The notes under the pieces: generated by a model
What the model saw: the letters and a program-made list of their open reading frames with translations, nothing else
Databases searched by the model: none
What the model was told of the DNA's origin: nothing
DNA from: a virus
Lineage: Duplodnaviria; Heunggongvirae; Uroviricota; Caudoviricetes
DNA length: 5,724 nucleotides
IMG/VR virus record: IMGVR_UViG_2563366838_000009
Reading direction: 5' to 3' (one strand)
Shown here: one piece after another, positions 1-5,724 of the stretch
How the letters are laid out: every line of letters starts with the position of its first letter
Position numbering within the stretch: the first letter of the stretch is position 1
Translations under genes and position numbers: made by a program

Positions 1-176
1 TGGAACTGGCCACACTCACGTGGGTGGACTGGTATAACAATCGACGATTGCTGGAAAGGCTGGGCCATACTCCTCCGGCAGAAGCAGAAAAAGCTTATTA
101 TGCTTCCATCGGAAACGATGATCTGGCAGCCTGAGTTCACAGATAAAACACTCTCCAGGAAACCCGGGGCGGTTCA
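1..176 (+). mobile_element. Right end of an IS3-family insertion sequence (IS629/IS3411-like terminal inverted repeat ending ...CCCGGGGCGGTTCA at 176), truncated at the window start
   Basis: Frame-3 translation of 3-134 gives a transposase-like C-terminus. The last ~45 bp (131-176) is the reverse complement of TGAACCGCCCCGGGTTTCCTGGAGAGTGTTTTATCTGTGAAC, which I recall as the IS629/IS3411/IS1203-type terminal inverted repeat (IS3 family ends are typically TG...CA). The ybhJ reading frame has stops at 35-37 and 119-121, so ybhJ cannot be continuous through this segment. Exact IS identity and exact end are from memory, not a search. Confidence 0.6.
3..134 (+). CDS. IS3-family DDE (rve-type) transposase OrfB, C-terminal 43 codons (5'-partial, runs off window start)
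   Basis: Frame 3 translates as [43 protein letters not shown], with the W-x-YN-x-R-x-LG-x-PP-x-E pattern typical of the C-terminal tail of IS3-family integrase-core transposases; TGA stop at 132-134 lies about 40 bp before the inferred IS end, as in IS3-family elements. Confidence 0.65.
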
Positions 177-1306
177 CACAGCCGGTGTTTATGGATCTCG
201 CCAAAAAAGGTGTGGTAGCAGATTTGATTGGCGCAGGCGCAATCATCAGAACCGCGTTCTGCGGCCCATGCTTTGGCGCAGGCGCAATCATCAGAACCGC
301 GTTCTGCGGCCCATGCTTTGGCGCGGGCGATACGCCAATCAACAACGGTTTGAGTATTCGCCACACCACGCGTAACTTCCCGAACCGCGAAGGCTCTAAG
401 CCAGCTAATGGGCAGATGTCAGCGGTGGCGTTGATGGACGCTCGTTCTATCGCTGCGACTGCGGCAAACGGTGGCTATTTAACCTCTGCCAGCGAACTTG
501 ATTGCTGGGACAACGTGCCGGAGTACGCCTTCGATGTAACGCCGTATAAAAACCGTGTTTATCAGGGCTTTGTGAAAGGGGCAACTCAGCAACCGCTGAT
601 TTACGGGCCGAACATTAAAGACTGGCCGGAATTGGGTGCGCTGACTGACAATATCGTCCTGAAAGTGTGCTCGAAGATCCTCGACGAAGTGACCACCACC
701 GACGAACTGATTCCTTCCGGTGAAACCTCTTCTTATCGTTCAAATCCGATTGGTCTGGCGGAGTTTACCCTGTCTCGCCGCGATCCCGGTTATGTTAGCA
801 GAAGTAAAGCGACTGCTGAGCTGGAAAATCAGCGTCTGGCGGGGAATGTCAGCGAGCTGACAGAGGTGTTTGCGCGCATTAAGCAGATTGCTGGTCAGGA
901 GCATATTGATCCGCTGCAAACTGAAATTGGCAGCATGGTCTATGCGGTGAAACCAGGCGATGGTTCTGCGCGTGAACAGGCGGCGAGCTGCCAGCGTGTG
1001 ATTGGCGGTCTGGCGAATATTGCCGAGGAGTACGCGACTAAACGCTATCGTTCTAACGTCATCAACTGGGGGATGTTACCGCTGCAAATGGCGGAAGTAC
1101 CAACCTTTGAAGTGGGGGATTACATTTACATCCCTGGCATTAAAGCGGCGCTGGATAATCCGGGTACGACGTTTAAAGGTTATGTGATCCATGAAGATGC
1201 GCCGGTAACGGAAATTACGCTCTATATGGAAAGTCTGACTGCTGAAGAGCGCGAGATTATCAAGGCGGGTAGTTTGATTAACTTCAATAAAAACCGTCAG
1301 ATGTAA
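177..1306 (+). pseudogene. ybhJ: ybhJ (aconitase-family putative hydratase), 3' portion; gene interrupted upstream by the IS insertion and carrying an in-frame 45-bp tandem duplication
   Basis: The reading frame is open from 122 to the TAA at 1304-1306. Translation contains aconitase-family signatures ([10 protein letters not shown] Fe-S ligand motif, then [14 protein letters not shown] corresponding to the aconitase SYNRNFxGR region). Position next to ybhC and att-lambda matches the E. coli gal-bio region. The GTG at 185 used by the ORF track is not a real start; the frame simply continues from the IS junction. Confidence 0.75.
231..320 (+). repeat. Perfect 45-bp direct tandem duplication (231-275 = 276-320) inside ybhJ, in frame, duplicating codons for [15 protein letters not shown]
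   Basis: Both copies read GCGCAGGCGCAATCATCAGAACCGCGTTCTGCGGCCCATGCTTTG with 45/45 identity; the repeat is flanked by the near-identical microhomology GGCGCAGGCG / GGCGCGGGCG. Confidence 0.95.
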
Positions 1307-1319
1307 AAAGCGCCATGTG

Positions 1320-1525
<206 letters not shown>

Positions 1526-1539
1526 ATAGTTAATTGCTC

Positions 1540-2823
1540 TTACTTCTTCGCCTCTGCAACCACTTTACTACCCACGCCGCGGTTATTGTATTCCCACATG
1601 CGGTTGTAGTTAGTGTCATTCAGATTGCGCTGTATTTCGTCGTTATCATCTACGCTGCCGGTATTACCCGCAAACGGACGATTAGAGATCACCGCATCGG
1701 CCCACGGTTTAGCCGTGTTAAAACCTTCGTTGATGGCGCTATCACGGATCACCACCTGACCGTTGGTATTGGCATCAACATCCAGCGAGCGGCCCAGTTG
1801 CGCCACACCATCACCGAAAGCATTGAAACGGCTGTTTACGGCGAGGAAACCGTAGTAAATGTTGGACAGCGTAGCCGGTGCAAACACATACGCTTCTTGC
1901 TGAGTACGTGAGTTCACCACGCGGAATTCGGTGTTATCGAACACCACTGCGCCGCGACCAGAAACGATATCCACATCCCCTTCAATGTAGCTGTTGGTCA
2001 CCAGCGTACGCGGCTGACGATTCGTTTCCAGACGGTTCTGCACACCGCTGTTGGTGACAAAGAAGGTGTTCTGACGACCGAGAATGTTAACGTTGTTAAT
2101 CTGTACCTGGTCACCATCAGTACGCAGTGCCACCGCCGGATGGTTACCTGCATCTACGCTATCGCCCAGCGTGTTTTCGATGGTCAGATTTTGCAGTTGC
2201 AGGCCATTGTTTTGTGACCAGAAGACCGCAGAGCAGAGAACACCGATACTGTCGCTGCGTTTGCTCTGGCAGCTATCGTACATATACCACGCTGGTTTAC
2301 CTGGCATATATTTGCCGCGCGGGTTGACGTCGTGACGCCAGTCGGCAGGGCTCATGCCACCATCAAGGGAAAGCCCAATCTTCACATCAATCGGTTTTTC
2401 ACCTGTACCGTACAGAGTAATTCCACCCGGAGCGGCAGGGACATATACCGTTCCCTGATACTCACCAGGCATCACGGCAATATACTGGCGCTTGTTGGTA
2501 CGCTTGATAATTGCCGCATCTACCGCCGCCTGAATCGTGGTATGCGTTACACCTTGAGTGCCCGCCGGGCCGACAACAAAGTCAGGTTGCGCAGGCAGGG
2601 TAATCGGGGAAGGATTCCACGCTGCAGCACCTGGTGTCAGGGATGCAAAATAGTGTTGAGCATCGAAATTCTGCGCTTCTTTTGCCGACAGAATCGGGCG
2701 AGAAGAGGTACCAGGCGCGGTTTGATCAGAAGGACGTTGATCGGGCGGGGTTGAGCTACAGGCGGTCAGCGTCACGCCAAAAGCCAATGCCAGCGCCAGA
2801 CGGGAAACTGAAAATGTGTTCAC
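1540..2823 (-). CDS. ybhC: YbhC, outer-membrane lipoprotein of the pectinesterase fold (putative acyl-CoA thioesterase), 427 aa, GTG start
   Basis: 427-aa ORF with N-terminal lipoprotein signal peptide and lipobox (MNTFSVSRLALALAFGVTLTAC, Cys as first mature residue); GGAG Shine-Dalgarno about 6 nt upstream of the GTG; length and position immediately next to att-lambda match E. coli ybhC. Confidence 0.9.
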   Translation of the reverse strand: MNTFSVSRLALALAFGVTLTACSSTPPDQRPSDQTAPGTSSRPILSAKEAQNFDAQHYFASLTPGAAAWNPSPITLPAQPDFVVGPAGTQGVTHTTIQAAVDAAIIKRTNKRQYIAVMPGEYQGTVYVPAAPGGITLYGTGEKPIDVKIGLSLDGGMSPADWRHDVNPRGKYMPGKPAWYMYDSCQSKRSDSIGVLCSAVFWSQNNGLQLQNLTIENTLGDSVDAGNHPAVALRTDGDQVQINNVNILGRQNTFFVTNSGVQNRLETNRQPRTLVTNSYIEGDVDIVSGRGAVVFDNTEFRVVNSRTQQEAYVFAPATLSNIYYGFLAVNSRFNAFGDGVAQLGRSLDVDANTNGQVVIRDSAINEGFNTAKPWADAVISNRPFAGNTGSVDDNDEIQRNLNDTNYNRMWEYNNRGVGSKVVAEAKK

Positions 2824-2862
2824 AGGTTGCTCCGGGCTATGAAATAGAAAAATGAATCCGTT

Positions 2863-2961
2863 GAAGCCTGCTTTTTTATACTAAGTTGGCATTATAAAAA
2901 AGCATTGCTTATCAATTTGTTGCAACGAACAGGTCACTATCAGTCAAAATAAAATCATTAT
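2863..2961. other. attL: attL (B-O-P') junction of a lambda-type prophage; core GCTTTTTTATACTAA at 2870-2884
   Basis: Host B arm (...TTGAAGCCTG) joined to the 15-bp lambda core and then the phage P' arm (GTTGGCATTATAAAAAAGCATTGCTTATCAATTTGTTGCAACGAACAGGTCACTATCAGTCAAAATAAAATCATTATTTGATTTC), followed directly by the 3' end of int; this matches the lambda attP P' arm as I remember it. Confidence 0.9.
2909..2961. promoter_or_regulatory. P' arm protein-binding sites: IHF H' site (ATCAATTTGTTG, 2911-2922) and Int arm-type sites P'1 (2930-2940), P'2 (2941-2950), P'3 (2951-2961)
   Basis: IHF consensus WATCAANNNNTTR is matched at 2911-2922; three tandem arm-type repeats CAGGTCACTAT / CAGTCAAAAT / AAAATCATTAT match the Int arm-site consensus (C/A)AGTCACTAT; P'3 overlaps the int stop codon. 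Confidence 0.75.
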
Positions 2962-4028
2962 TTGATTTCAATTTTGTCCCACTCCCTGCCTCTGTCATCA
3001 CGATACTGTGATGCCATGGTGTCCGACTTATGCCCGAGAAGATGTTGAGCAAACTTATCGCTTATCTGCTTCTCATAGAGTCTTGCAGACAAACTGCGCA
3101 ACTCGTGAAAGGTAGGCGGATCCCCTTCGAAGGAAAGACCTGATGCTTTTCGTGCGCGCATAAAATACCTTGATACTGTGCCGGATGAAAGCGGTTCGCG
3201 ACGAGTAGATGCAATTATGGTTTCTCCGCCAAGAATCTCTTTGCATTTATCAAGTGTTTCCTTCATTGATATTCCGAGAGCATCAACATGCAATGCTGTT
3301 GGGATGGCAATTTTTACGCCTGTTTTGCTTTGCTCGACATAAAGATATCCATCTACGATATCAGACCACTTCATTTCGCATAAATCACCAACTCGTTGCC
3401 CGGTAACAACAGCCAGTTCCATTGCAAGTCTGAGCCAACATGGTGATGATTCTGCTGCTTGATAAATTTTCAGGTATTCGTCAGCCGTAAGTCTTGATCT
3501 CCTTACCTCTGATTTTGCTGCGCGAGTGGCAGCGACAGGGTTTGTTGTTATATGGCCTTCAGCTATTGCCTCTCGGAATGCATCGCTCAGTGTTGATCTG
3601 ATTAACTTGGCTGACGCCGCCTTGCCCTCGTCTATGTATCCATTGAGCATTGCCGCAATTTCTTTTGTGGTGATGTCTTCAAGTGGAGCATCAGGCAGAC
3701 CCCTCCTTATTGCTTTAATTTTGCTCATGTAATTTATGAGTGTCTTCTGCTTGATTCCTCTGCTGGCCAGGATTTTTTCGTAGCGATCAAGCCATGAATG
3801 TAACGTAACGGAATTATCACTGTTGATTCTCGCTGTCAGAGGCTTGTGTTTGTGTCCTGAAAATAACTCAATGTTGGCCTGTATAGCTTCAGTGATTGCG
3901 ATTCGCCTGTCTCGGCCTAATCCAAACTCTTTACCCGTCCTTGGGTCCCTGTAGCAGTAATATCCATTGTTTCTTATATAAAGGTTAGGGGGTAAATCCC
4001 GGCGCTCATGACTTCGCCTTCTTCCCAT
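2958..4028 (-). CDS. int: Lambda-type integrase Int (tyrosine recombinase), 356 aa
   Basis: 356-aa ORF beginning MGRRRSHERRDLPPNLYIRNNGYYCYRDPRTGKEFGLGRD (arm-binding N-domain) with the catalytic tyrosine-recombinase residues in HELRSL, HLLGH and the Tyr in MASQYRDD. Stop codon 81 bp from the core centre, and a GGATCC (BamHI) site at 3118-3123, both as in lambda int. Confidence 0.95.
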   Translation of the reverse strand: MGRRRSHERRDLPPNLYIRNNGYYCYRDPRTGKEFGLGRDRRIAITEAIQANIELFSGHKHKPLTARINSDNSVTLHSWLDRYEKILASRGIKQKTLINYMSKIKAIRRGLPDAPLEDITTKEIAAMLNGYIDEGKAASAKLIRSTLSDAFREAIAEGHITTNPVAATRAAKSEVRRSRLTADEYLKIYQAAESSPCWLRLAMELAVVTGQRVGDLCEMKWSDIVDGYLYVEQSKTGVKIAIPTALHVDALGISMKETLDKCKEILGGETIIASTRREPLSSGTVSRYFMRARKASGLSFEGDPPTFHELRSLSARLYEKQISDKFAQHLLGHKSDTMASQYRDDRGREWDKIEIK

Positions 4029-4224
4029 TTCTGATCCTCTTCAAAAGGCTACCTGTTACTGGTCGATTTAAGTCAACCTTTACCGCTGATTCGTGGAACA
4101 GATATTCTCTTCCATCCTTAACCGGAGGAGGGAATATCCTGCATTCGCGCACCCATCGACGAATTGTTTCAAGGCTTCTTGGGCGTCGCTGGCGAGCGTT
4201 CCACTCCTGAAGTGTCAAGTACAT
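4006..4224 (-). CDS. xis: Excisionase Xis, 72 aa, 3' end overlapping the int start by 23 bp
   Basis: 72-aa ORF MYLTLQEWNARQRRPRSLETIRRWVRECRIFPPPVKDGREYLFHESAVKVDLNRPVTGSLLKRIRNGKKAKS, matching lambda Xis as I remember it; the int-xis overlap is the lambda arrangement. Confidence 0.9.
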   Translation of the reverse strand: MYLTLQEWNARQRRPRSLETIRRWVRECRIFPPPVKDGREYLFHESAVKVDLNRPVTGSLLKRIRNGKKAKS

Positions 4225-4251: not shown

Positions 4252-4271
4252 AAAAAACCGCCATCAGGCGG
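4252..4271 (-). terminator. Rho-independent terminator on the minus strand (GC stem CCGCC/GGCGG, loop ATCA, then T6)
   Basis: Plus strand AAAAAACCGCCATCAGGCGG: on the minus strand the hairpin (4258-4271) is followed by TTTTTT (4252-4257). The stop codon of the upstream 55-aa ORF (4264-4266) lies in the loop. Confidence 0.7.
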
Positions 4272-4431
4272 CTTGGTGTTCTTTCAGTTCTTCAATTCGA
4301 ATATTGGTTACGTCTGCATGTGCTATCTGCGCCCACAGCATCCAGTGGTTATAGCAGTCGCTGATGTTCTCGGCTTCGATAACTCTGTTGAATGGTTCTC
4401 CATTCCATTCACCTGTAACTCGGAAGTGCAT
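4264..4431 (-). CDS. Small hypothetical protein, 55 aa (MHFRVTGEWNGEPFNRVIEAENISDCYNHWMLWAQIAHADVTNIRIEELKEHQAA)
   Basis: ATG-initiated ORF below the 60-aa cutoff of the supplied track, found by manual translation. It fits exactly between the tandem terminators (4441-4500) and the terminator at 4252-4271, and has a protein-like composition. The ribosome-binding site is weak. I recall an unnamed ORF of about this size at this position in lambda but cannot verify that here. Confidence 0.45.
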   Translation of the reverse strand: MHFRVTGEWNGEPFNRVIEAENISDCYNHWMLWAQIAHADVTNIRIEELKEHQAA

Positions 4432-4520: not shown

Positions 4521-4802
4521 TTACTTCTTGGCGTTCTGTTCATCCATATCGATATACCATGGGTTGCTTCCCTTGGGCATGTTTAACGACTGCTCGCGAT
4601 AGTATCTGATGCGCTCCATGAAATACTCGCGTGAGTGCTCAGGTTGCTCTCATGATACCTGCTCAGTGATAACAGGTATGTTAAGGCGCTCTCTGTACTC
4701 CATGCCTGATGCTGCAAGGTCAACGTTTACCTTGTTCTGTTTTTCTTTCGATTTCTCGGCGATGTTATGCCTGACATTGTCAACCCGCCTCCTTCTGAAC
4801 AT
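4521..4802 (-). pseudogene. ea8.5-position reading frame (282 bp, ATG at 4802, TAA at 4521-4523) interrupted by an in-frame TGA at 4650-4652
   Basis: Manual translation gives MFRRRRVDNVRHNIAEKSKEKQNKVNVDLAASGMEYRERLNIPVITEQVS-stop-EQPEHSREYFMERIRYYREQSLNMPKGSNPWYIDMDEQNAKK. The 282-bp span and its position relative to xis match my recollection of the lambda ea8.5 annotation. The TGA breaks it into 50-aa and 42-codon segments. Whether this frame is truly expressed in any phage is uncertain: weak RBS, and three consecutive rare Arg codons AGA AGG AGG. Confidence 0.4.
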
Positions 4803-5064
4803 AACGGTTATAAATCAGTCCCTGAGGGCCATAAGGAAGCGGGATGTGCAACTCCTCTGGTTCAGAAACTATCCATTCCCCGGCCATCTCCGCTGGAGAG
4901 GTAATGATAAGTTGTTTGCTAATAAAAGGACCACTCCTCTCAACAACAAGCTTACCATCTTCATTAATAAAAGCTTGGATGTCAGGTGTGCTTCCACACT
5001 TGGTGATGCAGCGTTTGAACATTTTGTGTCCCCCCATTTTATGGACGGGGTAATTATAACACAT
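4780..5064 (-). CDS. Hypothetical small Cys/His-containing protein, 94 aa from the first ATG; more likely 80 aa starting at ATG 5022, which has a GGGGGA Shine-Dalgarno
   Basis: ORF with protein-like composition; the internal ATG at 5020-5022 is preceded by GGGGGACACAAA (SD with 6-nt spacer). N-terminal region has H-x4-H-x5-C-x3-C (HKMGGHKMFKRCITKC), a possible small metal-binding site. The overlapping plus-strand 152-aa ORF translates to low-complexity sequence and is rejected. Confidence 0.5.
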   Translation of the reverse strand: MCYNYPVHKMGGHKMFKRCITKCGSTPDIQAFINEDGKLVVERSGPFISKQLIITSPAEMAGEWIVSEPEELHIPLPYGPQGLIYNRYVQKEAG

Positions 5065-5148: not shown

Positions 5149-5724
5149 TCACCCATCTTGCTGCGGTGCTACTATTGAAAAGTACTCACACCCTTTAGCC
5201 CAAATAGTTTTGATAGTTGTCCAACTGACTGGAACCTTGATTTCGATTCTTCCGCTGCCGTCACAAGTTTCGCAATCATCATCACCAAAGCATTCCGGGC
5301 AGCTTATAAACGTAGTTTCTGAAAATTCACCGGATAGCACACCCTTAGCGCCGTTCTCAGCGGTTAGTTTCTTCGGCACTATAACCCAACCATCCGGAGT
5401 TACCGGAGAATTGCCATTTATATCGAAGTTTGGCTCTGCGTCCTGAACCAGGAGGATGTAACCATTCTTGGCAGTATCAAGTTCTAACGCCTCGGTGACG
5501 GTACCGAAATAGCGATTACCTAAATCCGCATCACAAGTGCTTACATCAATGGAAACCTCCATGCCTTCGATTAATTCTGGCAAGTTGTAAGTTTGGCTTA
5601 CAGGTTCTGCTCCCAGTGATGCCAGTGCAATTCGTGCCAGTTCCATTTGTTCGCCACGAGTAAGCCCGTTTTCAAGCGGATTTTTAATGAACAATTCAAT
5701 ACGTTCTTTGGTAATAGTGGTCAT
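5149..5724 (-). CDS. Hypothetical prophage early-left protein, at least 191 aa, with a C-terminal CPECFGDDDCETCDGSG cysteine cluster (CxxC-x5-CxxCxGxG); 5' end may lie beyond the window
   Basis: Long minus-strand ORF ending at TGA 5149-5151. An ATG sits exactly at the window edge (5722-5724), so the true start cannot be confirmed. The second half-motif CETCDGSG matches the DnaJ-type CxxCxGxG zinc-finger signature. It occupies the position where lambda carries ea22, but length and frame do not match my recollection of lambda ea22. Confidence 0.65.
   Translation of the reverse strand: MTTITKERIELFIKNPLENGLTRGEQMELARIALASLGAEPVSQTYNLPELIEGMEVSIDVSTCDADLGNRYFGTVTEALELDTAKNGYILLVQDAEPNFDINGNSPVTPDGWVIVPKKLTAENGAKGVLSGEFSETTFISCPECFGDDDCETCDGSGRIEIKVPVSWTTIKTIWAKGCEYFSIVAPQQDG

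Follow-up and report, generated by a model that had tools for sequence, protein, structure and literature searches.

A conserved C-terminal mini-domain with a predicted four-cysteine knuckle in an accessory protein of a lambda-like Escherichia coli prophage

The exo-xis or 'ea' regions of lambdoid and P22-like phages affect lysogeny, induction and the release of Shiga toxin by enterohaemorrhagic Escherichia coli (EHEC), and most of the modules encoded in them are uncharacterised. One small protein that has been described, lambda Ea8.5, is a homeodomain/zinc-finger hybrid and is encoded between ea22 and xis (PMC7093339). Here we analysed a gene lying in such a region, on the minus strand at positions 5149-5724 of a 5,724-nucleotide stretch of DNA (IMG/VR virus record IMGVR_UViG_2563366838_000009; the whole stretch is hereafter the window), whose 191-residue product carries a compact cluster of four cysteines with a DnaJ-like spacing. 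Single zinc centres of the DnaJ type are known to act as protein-binding modules, for example in Anti-TRAP.

Our study shows that this protein ends in an autonomous domain of about 70 residues, which is strongly selected and is found in prophages across bacterial phyla. The family is already catalogued but uncharacterised and mislabelled, and it does not constitute a new mechanism. The analysis removes the Ea22 and DnaJ labels from a very common module, and defines its boundaries, its signature motifs and its predicted fold. It also exposes a systematic misannotation as 'molecular chaperone DnaJ', together with an artefact in the calling of mosaic genes by the Prokaryotic Genome Annotation Pipeline (PGAP), and supplies a seed for a new domain family model.

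The C-terminal domain and its four-cysteine knuckle

The gene and its parts lie in the window as follows.

5149-5724, minus strand: complete coding sequence, 191 residues plus stop (TGA, 5149-5151); net charge -17, isoelectric point (pI) 4.2
5614-5724, minus strand: N-terminal module, residues 1-37 (MTTITKERIELFIK...ELARIALASL), two predicted helices
5395-5613, minus strand: middle module, residues 38-110, acidic (net charge -10 over residues 47-110)
5176-5394, minus strand: C-terminal conserved domain, residues 111-183, with a lead-in, a short helix, a beta-hairpin tipped by the four cysteines (Cys4) and a C-terminal helix
5344-5367, minus strand: LTAENGAK motif, residues 120-127, followed by L130, G132, E133 and F134; most conserved stretch of the family
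5251-5301, minus strand: Cys4 knuckle CPECFGDDDCETCDGSG, residues 142-158, predicted single metal centre, net charge -6
5200-5223, minus strand: W-T-T-I-K-x-I-W motif, residues 168-175 (WTTIKTIW in this protein), start of the C-terminal helix

Judged from its sequence, the cysteine cluster is no chance arrangement but a true and conserved Cys4 knuckle of DnaJ (CxxCxGxG) type. The translation of the open reading frame (ORF) contains FISCPECFGDDDCETCDGSGRIEI, and the full SCPEC...GSG stretch, SCPECFGDDDCETCDGSG (residues 141-158), is encoded at 5251-5304. The compact cluster that the first-pass annotation had placed at 5263-5301 is real and spans exactly Cys142 to Cys154 (C142, 5299-5301; C145, 5290-5292; C151, 5272-5274; C154, 5263-5265). 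The DnaJ-type spacing it had read, CxxC-x5-CxxCxGxG, holds as well: the second pair is a perfect CxxCxGxG, the first merely CxxCxGxx. When the protein was shuffled, a CxxC-x2-14-CxxC pattern appeared in 135 of 200,000 shuffles. A fifth cysteine nearby, C179, is not conserved, and direct reading of the sequence finds no histidine in the whole protein.

Conservation was assessed in two sets, the 150 best representatives of clusters formed at 50% identity (close members) and an alignment of 121 diverse sequences (distant members). All four cysteines are invariant in the close members (150/150), as are most other positions. Among the distant members, 105 of the 121 keep at least four cysteines in the loop between GEF and W. 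This loop varies from 12 to 35 residues and its cysteines are arranged as CxxC-x4-14-CxxC, CxC...CxxC or NPDYCGCGxCxxC. In the Salmonella proteins ST64B Sb31 and sal3 gp108 a Phe takes the place of the first cysteine and the rest is conserved; in six sequences forming one clade the loop is free of cysteine and is replaced by an acidic one of the PNPDYDP.LDDEDEEPEFF type. The acidity of the knuckle is general. It is negatively charged in 100% of the 121 members, with a mean charge of -5.65 and 30% Asp plus Glu, and the flanks are neutral; the net charge of the domain averages -6.6.

The first-pass annotation had suggested a small knuckle attached to an N-terminal domain. The knuckle stands, but it is not an appendage: it forms the tip of the hairpin in an autonomous domain of about 70 residues whose best-conserved residues are not the cysteines, and the rest of the protein consists of two further modules. 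Indeed, conservation among the 121 distant members is strongest outside the knuckle, in [ML]P..LTAENGAK..L.GEF on its N-terminal side and W.TIK.I[YW] on its C-terminal side. Residues 116-134 of the present protein, VPKKLTAENGAKGVLSGEF, fit the first of these motifs. Each residue of LTAENGAK is found in 111 to 120 of the 121 members and F134 in all 121; on the other side, W168 and K172 are each kept in 120, I174 in 118 and I171 in 116. Furthermore, comparison of the C-terminal module with Citrobacter, Enterobacter, Pseudocitrobacter and other genera gave a ratio of nonsynonymous to synonymous substitution (dN/dS) of 0.06-0.15, synonymous sites being nearly saturated.

With the 121-sequence alignment, AlphaFold2 (AF2) modelled the domain at a predicted local distance difference test score (pLDDT) of 87.9. 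It shows an extended lead-in and a short helix (126-130), then a beta-hairpin (135-141 and 159-165) whose tip is the cysteine loop, and finally a helix at the C-terminal end (168-182). In this predicted fold the lead-in and the C-terminal helix clamp the beta-hairpin with its Cys4 tip. No solved structural neighbour of the domain was found.

The protein as a whole is a mosaic of three modules, residues 1-37, 38-110 and 111-183, encoded by a mosaic accessory gene. The N-terminal one, with predicted helices at 6-14 and 23-37 (AF2 pLDDT about 70), is common to many otherwise different phage 'ea' proteins, and residues 1-45 are matched by PHROGs 3323, 660 and 10451. In close relatives this N-terminus is swapped and residues from about 38 to 191 are kept. 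The middle module was modelled at a pLDDT of about 33, from a shallow alignment. Exchanges at the other end are seen in HK620 hkaE, HK633, ST160 and SE1, which have residues 1-114/129 in common with this protein (80-97% identity) and then a DUF551 C-terminus; by tblastn, identity reaches 96.5% to HK620 hkaE over residues 1-114 and 80% to ST160 over residues 1-129. Finally, gp108 of the functional Salmonella phage 118970_sal3 has the same N- and C-terminal modules around a different middle.

How far does the protein extend? The first-pass annotation had given at least 191 residues; the ATG takes up the final three bases of the window. The identical copies supply the upstream sequence: at locus L001 (6450-7025) an in-frame TAA lies two codons before the ATG, an AAGGA Shine-Dalgarno sequence 7 nucleotides before it, and the preceding gene ends 10 nucleotides upstream. 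Because this in-frame stop and Shine-Dalgarno sequence fix the start, the protein is complete at exactly 191 residues. Full-length 191-residue proteins are recorded in the databases, under a DnaJ name, and the identical architecture is frequent. At least 80% of the 1025-base pair (bp) region holding the gene is present in 55 complete E. coli genomes.

Current annotation does not render this gene well. In some copies PGAP calls the first 46 codons a 'partial' pseudogene and begins a 137-residue 'molecular chaperone DnaJ' at the internal Met55; in others (L002, 3888-4025) only an N-terminal fragment is called, and the C-terminal two-thirds are left uncalled. This splitting and under-calling of an intact 191-residue ORF is an annotation artefact of mosaicism. 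The protein has no Pfam match at E <= 0.1 and matches no NCBIfam model; PHROG 60, of unknown function, spans it entirely (E = 1.4e-41).

Distribution, partners and genomic setting

An exhaustive search with residues 115-191 as query returned at least 1257 protein clusters at 50% identity containing the domain, 649 of them at E <= 1e-10. In these clusters it lies nearly always at the extreme C-terminus of proteins of 95-442 residues (in the present protein a tail of 8 residues follows it). Remote homologues from Serratia, Pseudomonas and Vibrio phages are 44-47% identical and have four cysteines spaced by x4 or x8; in pAN_47 the module is N-terminal. When these remote homologues were made into a profile, it retrieved 163 proteins, many of just 76-90 residues, and the domain is therefore also free-standing. 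A genome scan detected it in 57 species-level genomes, which belong to Enterobacterales, Pseudomonas (many), Burkholderiales, Alphaproteobacteria, Cellvibrionales, Bacteroidota, Verrucomicrobiota and Planctomycetota; in the phage collection, 23 records carry it. No mention of the domain was found in the Ea22 and exo-xis papers, in the polyvalent-protein catalogue or in an accessory-gene screen, and no indexed paper contains the string LTAENGAK.

The domain is found behind varied partners. Among 148 representatives, it is fused to a dATP/dGTP pyrophosphohydrolase (9), to DUF551 (9), to Ead_Ea22 (6) and to ASCH/DUF3850, and among 56 genome loci an N-terminal restriction-alleviation domain of the Lar family, distinct from the knuckle domain, is present in four Pseudomonas proteins, and YqaJ in one protein. 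The neighbouring genes (integrase/excisionase, SSB, ERF, YqaJ, Rv2179c-like exonuclease) are those of a generic early region. A large gene for a C5 cytosine DNA methyltransferase often precedes the knuckle-domain gene (11 loci, mostly in Pseudomonas). This methylase/Lar association is probably lineage-restricted: the links are largely those of Pseudomonas prophages, and the census of neighbours, with generic early-region genes only, contained no conserved one that betrays a function.

In Salmonella sal3, Escherichia PhiR47_1, Salmonella ST64B and Serratia OS31, a gene of about 190 residues for a 3'-5' exonuclease lies one or two genes downstream of the knuckle-domain gene. It is of the Rv2179c-like 3'-5' exoribonuclease type, named 'exodeoxyribonuclease VIII' in PhiR47_1, and in sal3, ST64B and OS31 it is followed by xis and int. 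In the window, a pseudogene for theta, the partner of the epsilon exonuclease, sits at a comparable place, which may be a coincidence.

The window itself comes from the E. coli chromosome, at the lambda attachment site (attB) beside ybhC, and includes the left arm of a lambda-like prophage. Its other features are the following.

185-1306, ORF: 3' part of ybhJ
1540-2823, minus strand: ybhC
2958-4028, minus strand: int
4006-4224, minus strand: xis
4264-4431, minus strand: lambda-orf55-like gene, 55 residues
4521-4802, minus strand: pseudogene like DNA polymerase III theta (HolE/HOT), with an in-frame TGA after codon 50 (internal stop according to PGAP)
4780-5064, minus strand: ORF adjoining the knuckle-domain gene, 94 residues in the ORF list and 80 residues from an internal Met in RefSeq

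The adjoining ORF (4780-5064) has no Pfam or NCBIfam match; its sole match is PHROG 9613, of unknown function. Upstream of the knuckle-domain gene, the identical loci of complete genomes contain genes for a 251-residue hypothetical protein, an Ead/Ea22-like protein, a TraR/Orf73 homologue, DUF1382 and DUF1317, then exo and a bet remnant. The gene thus lies in the variable stretch of the exo-xis leftward early region, between the prophage's own Ead/Ea22-like gene and xis. The earlier view of its product as an uncharacterised prophage accessory protein is supported. The 'ea22 position' assigned to it by the first-pass annotation is loose, since the gene right after the TraR/DksA homologue is a separate 135-residue 'ead/Ea22-like' gene, outside the window, and the gene studied here lies two genes further toward xis.

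Bases 1 to about 195 of the window correspond to the end of an IS3-family element (IS1203/IS629-like) of which genomes carry many copies. The ybhJ gene of this strain is therefore broken up, ORF 185-1306 being its 3' part alone. Inside ybhJ, positions 228-329 hold 2.3 in-frame copies of a 45-bp unit, which duplicates 15 residues; typical E. coli genomes have a single copy, as the matching span there is about 44 nucleotides shorter. In E. coli O157:H16 98-3133 (L001, 3063-5678), an insertion of ISCro1, of the IS66 family, separates the orf55-like gene from the theta pseudogene, and in this copy of the prophage bet and ninG are truncated and a gene of the lpxR family is present.

Possible roles of the domain

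What could such a domain do? The most likely role, which we put forward tentatively and with slightly less than even confidence, is that of a zinc-braced acidic protein-docking module in an early host-takeover or anti-defence accessory protein. The four cysteines would bind one Zn(II), and the zinc site would act as a structural brace holding out the acidic loop. The brace role is suggested by the drift in spacing and arrangement of the cysteines and by the clade which substitutes a longer poly-Asp/Glu loop. The domain would be a protein-binding module, docking or inhibitory, rather than a nucleic-acid binder or a chaperone. Phages may join it to exchangeable N-terminal modules, or produce it by itself, at an early stage of infection or induction. 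It could engage a conserved bacterial or phage protein, plausibly a DNA-binding one, the acidic tip possibly mimicking DNA, and its role would then fall in the host-takeover or anti-restriction repertoire. The fusion partners, the Lar fusions of Pseudomonas and the neighbouring genes, the C5 methylase among them, lend the domain an early or anti-restriction flavour.

Several observations weigh against this proposal. The methylase and Lar associations come almost all from Pseudomonas prophages and may reflect one lineage and not a functional link. No match to the known defence-system models of PADLOC-DB was found for the protein, nor for the window ORFs 4780-5064 and 4264-4431 or the two genes upstream in L001. 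Conservation of the flanks in a mini-domain of 70 residues may reflect the needs of folding and not a binding site. Moreover, ST64B Sb31 and sal3 gp108 lack the first cysteine, which means that not every member strictly needs the metal site.

In a bolder form of the docking proposal, the zinc-braced acidic hairpin would plug a conserved DNA-binding protein or defence nuclease of the host, by mimicking DNA or by inhibiting its target in some other way. The unrecognised cross-phylum domain family would then be a portable module of a new class, for anti-restriction or host takeover, that phages bolt onto Lar-like, MazZ-like pyrophosphohydrolase, DUF551 and Ead/Ea22 modules. We consider this form unlikely. 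If the domain does target a protein of defence or DNA metabolism, a portable anti-defence module would be added to those known; otherwise it would be one more structural mini-domain of phage accessory proteins. The zinc-braced acidic docking tip is offered here as a concrete idea open to testing.

The C-terminal domain could instead serve mainly for oligomerisation, as a scaffold multimerising the fused N-terminal module without any external target, in the way of the Anti-TRAP trimers and dodecamers or of the Ea22 C-terminal dimer. Its promiscuous C-terminal position behind unrelated modules is what one would expect of such a scaffold, the published Ea22 proteins have a coiled coil together with C-terminal domains that are dimeric (PMC8614690, PMC10834534), and a weak resemblance to Anti-TRAP points the same way. 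However, the common free-standing versions of 76-90 residues need a function of their own, and the polar residues E123, N124, K127, E133 and K172, invariant across phyla, exceed the usual demand of packing. We hold this explanation to be doubtful.

Rather improbable, in our view, is a zinc-ribbon domain binding nucleic acids or regulating transcription, which would make the protein a small lysis-lysogeny regulator like Ea22, Ea8.5 or Orf73/TraR. The slot does hold other zinc proteins that influence lysogeny, Ea8.5 and Orf73/TraR (PMC7093339, PMC8614690), and homologues are labelled 'Ea22' or 'EaA' in some phage records. But the charges given above and a pI of 4.2 are unfavourable for binding to DNA or RNA, no similarity to Ea22 or to Ea8.5 (hhalign probability 1% for the latter) was detected, and the Ea22 variants V1-V3 of 933W, Sakai and P27 do not have the module.

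A fragment of a DnaJ-like co-chaperone or holdase, whose knuckle would bind unfolded substrates or cooperate with DnaK, is very unlikely. The CxxCxGxG pattern and the name DnaJ given by NCBI to many copies speak for it, as does the comparison of the family profile with structures, in which the cysteine-rich domain of human DNAJA3 (2ctt) comes at E = 0.0066 with an alignment reaching into the lead-in (ELT..AK..EF), followed by Anti-TRAP (3lcz, 0.76) and E. coli DnaJ (1.4). In addition, 14 of the 121 family members match Pfam DnaJ_CXXCXGXG (PF00684) at E <= 0.01. However, all of these matches are below the gathering score, the best reaching 26.9 bits against 32.7 with half of the model covered, and the protein studied here does not match PF00684 even at E <= 10. 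A J domain with its His-Pro-Asp (HPD) motif (PF00226) was not found in it by Pfam at E <= 0.1, and DnaJ_C (PF01556) gave no match at E <= 10 with this protein or with nine representative members. By hhalign, the probability against E. coli DnaJ is 25%, over 23 columns of the knuckle only. The loop is strongly acidic and would hold one metal centre instead of two. As far as the sequences tell, the DnaJ resemblance is at the level of the motif only.

Least probable of all is a decaying or chimeric pseudogene, the functionless recombination scar of different 'ea' gene fragments: the 'partial' calls of PGAP and the visible decay of the prophage (theta-like pseudogene, truncated bet, IS elements) could suggest it, but we reject it because the ORF is intact, with a proper Shine-Dalgarno sequence and start, and the module is under strong purifying selection; the 191-residue architecture is frequent, 55 complete E. 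coli genomes have at least 80% of the region holding the gene, and gp108 of the functional phage sal3 matches both ends.

Comparison with known systems

The cysteine-rich domain of DnaJ/Hsp40 (PF00684) shares with our domain a CxxCxGxG motif at the tip of a beta-hairpin, predicted in our case. It has four repeats and two zinc centres, whereas here there are two cysteine pairs and one predicted centre. DnaJ lacks the conserved flanks LTAENGAK and W.TIK.IY, and our protein has an acidic loop and no substrate-binding domains. A genuine DnaJ chaperone was thus rejected: the J domain, HPD motif, Gly/Phe-rich (G/F) region and DnaJ_C are all missing.

The knuckles of Anti-TRAP (RtpA of Bacillus subtilis, PF15777) and of the BSD2 type are likewise small, have a single DnaJ-type Cys4 centre, as predicted here, and are used for protein binding. 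Their flanking elements differ, our protein stands in a phage context, and no significant match in sequence or structure links them. Indeed, PF15777 aligns with 12 residues of our protein at 13.4 bits (E = 0.081), below its gathering score of 32 bits, and gives weak matches to 2 of the 121 members at E <= 0.01 and to 1 of 56 at E <= 0.001.

Ea22 (Ead_Ea22, PF13935) resembles our protein in its early leftward accessory region, its mosaic, module-swapping architecture and its acidic C-terminal domain, and some relatives of the domain carry an Ead_Ea22 N-terminus in front of the knuckle module (PMC10834534). In contrast, our protein has neither the coiled-coil Ead_Ea22 signature nor the terminal +GE tripeptide, and the published Ea22 C-terminal domains (that of lambda, DUF551 and others) differ from the knuckle domain. 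An ordinary lambda Ea22 orthologue, the outcome that the first-pass annotation had set against its own proposal, was rejected on a best BLASTP E of 1.4 and the lack of a PF13935 match. The Ea22 variants V1-V3 of Shiga-toxin phages were rejected as well: 933W, VT2-Sakai and P27 are in the phage collection and are not among its 23 domain-bearing records.

Two further domains bear comparison. Lar (PF14354) is likewise a small, cysteine-containing domain of phage early proteins; our protein has no Lar domain, and in the Pseudomonas fusions Lar is a distinct N-terminal domain and not the knuckle. DUF551 (PF04448), known from HK620 hkaE, ST160, SE1 and YfdS-like proteins, is unrelated in sequence and is a Pfam family, unlike the knuckle domain, for which neither Pfam nor NCBIfam has a matching model; what the two share is the same C-terminal slot and the nature of a portable phage domain of unknown function.

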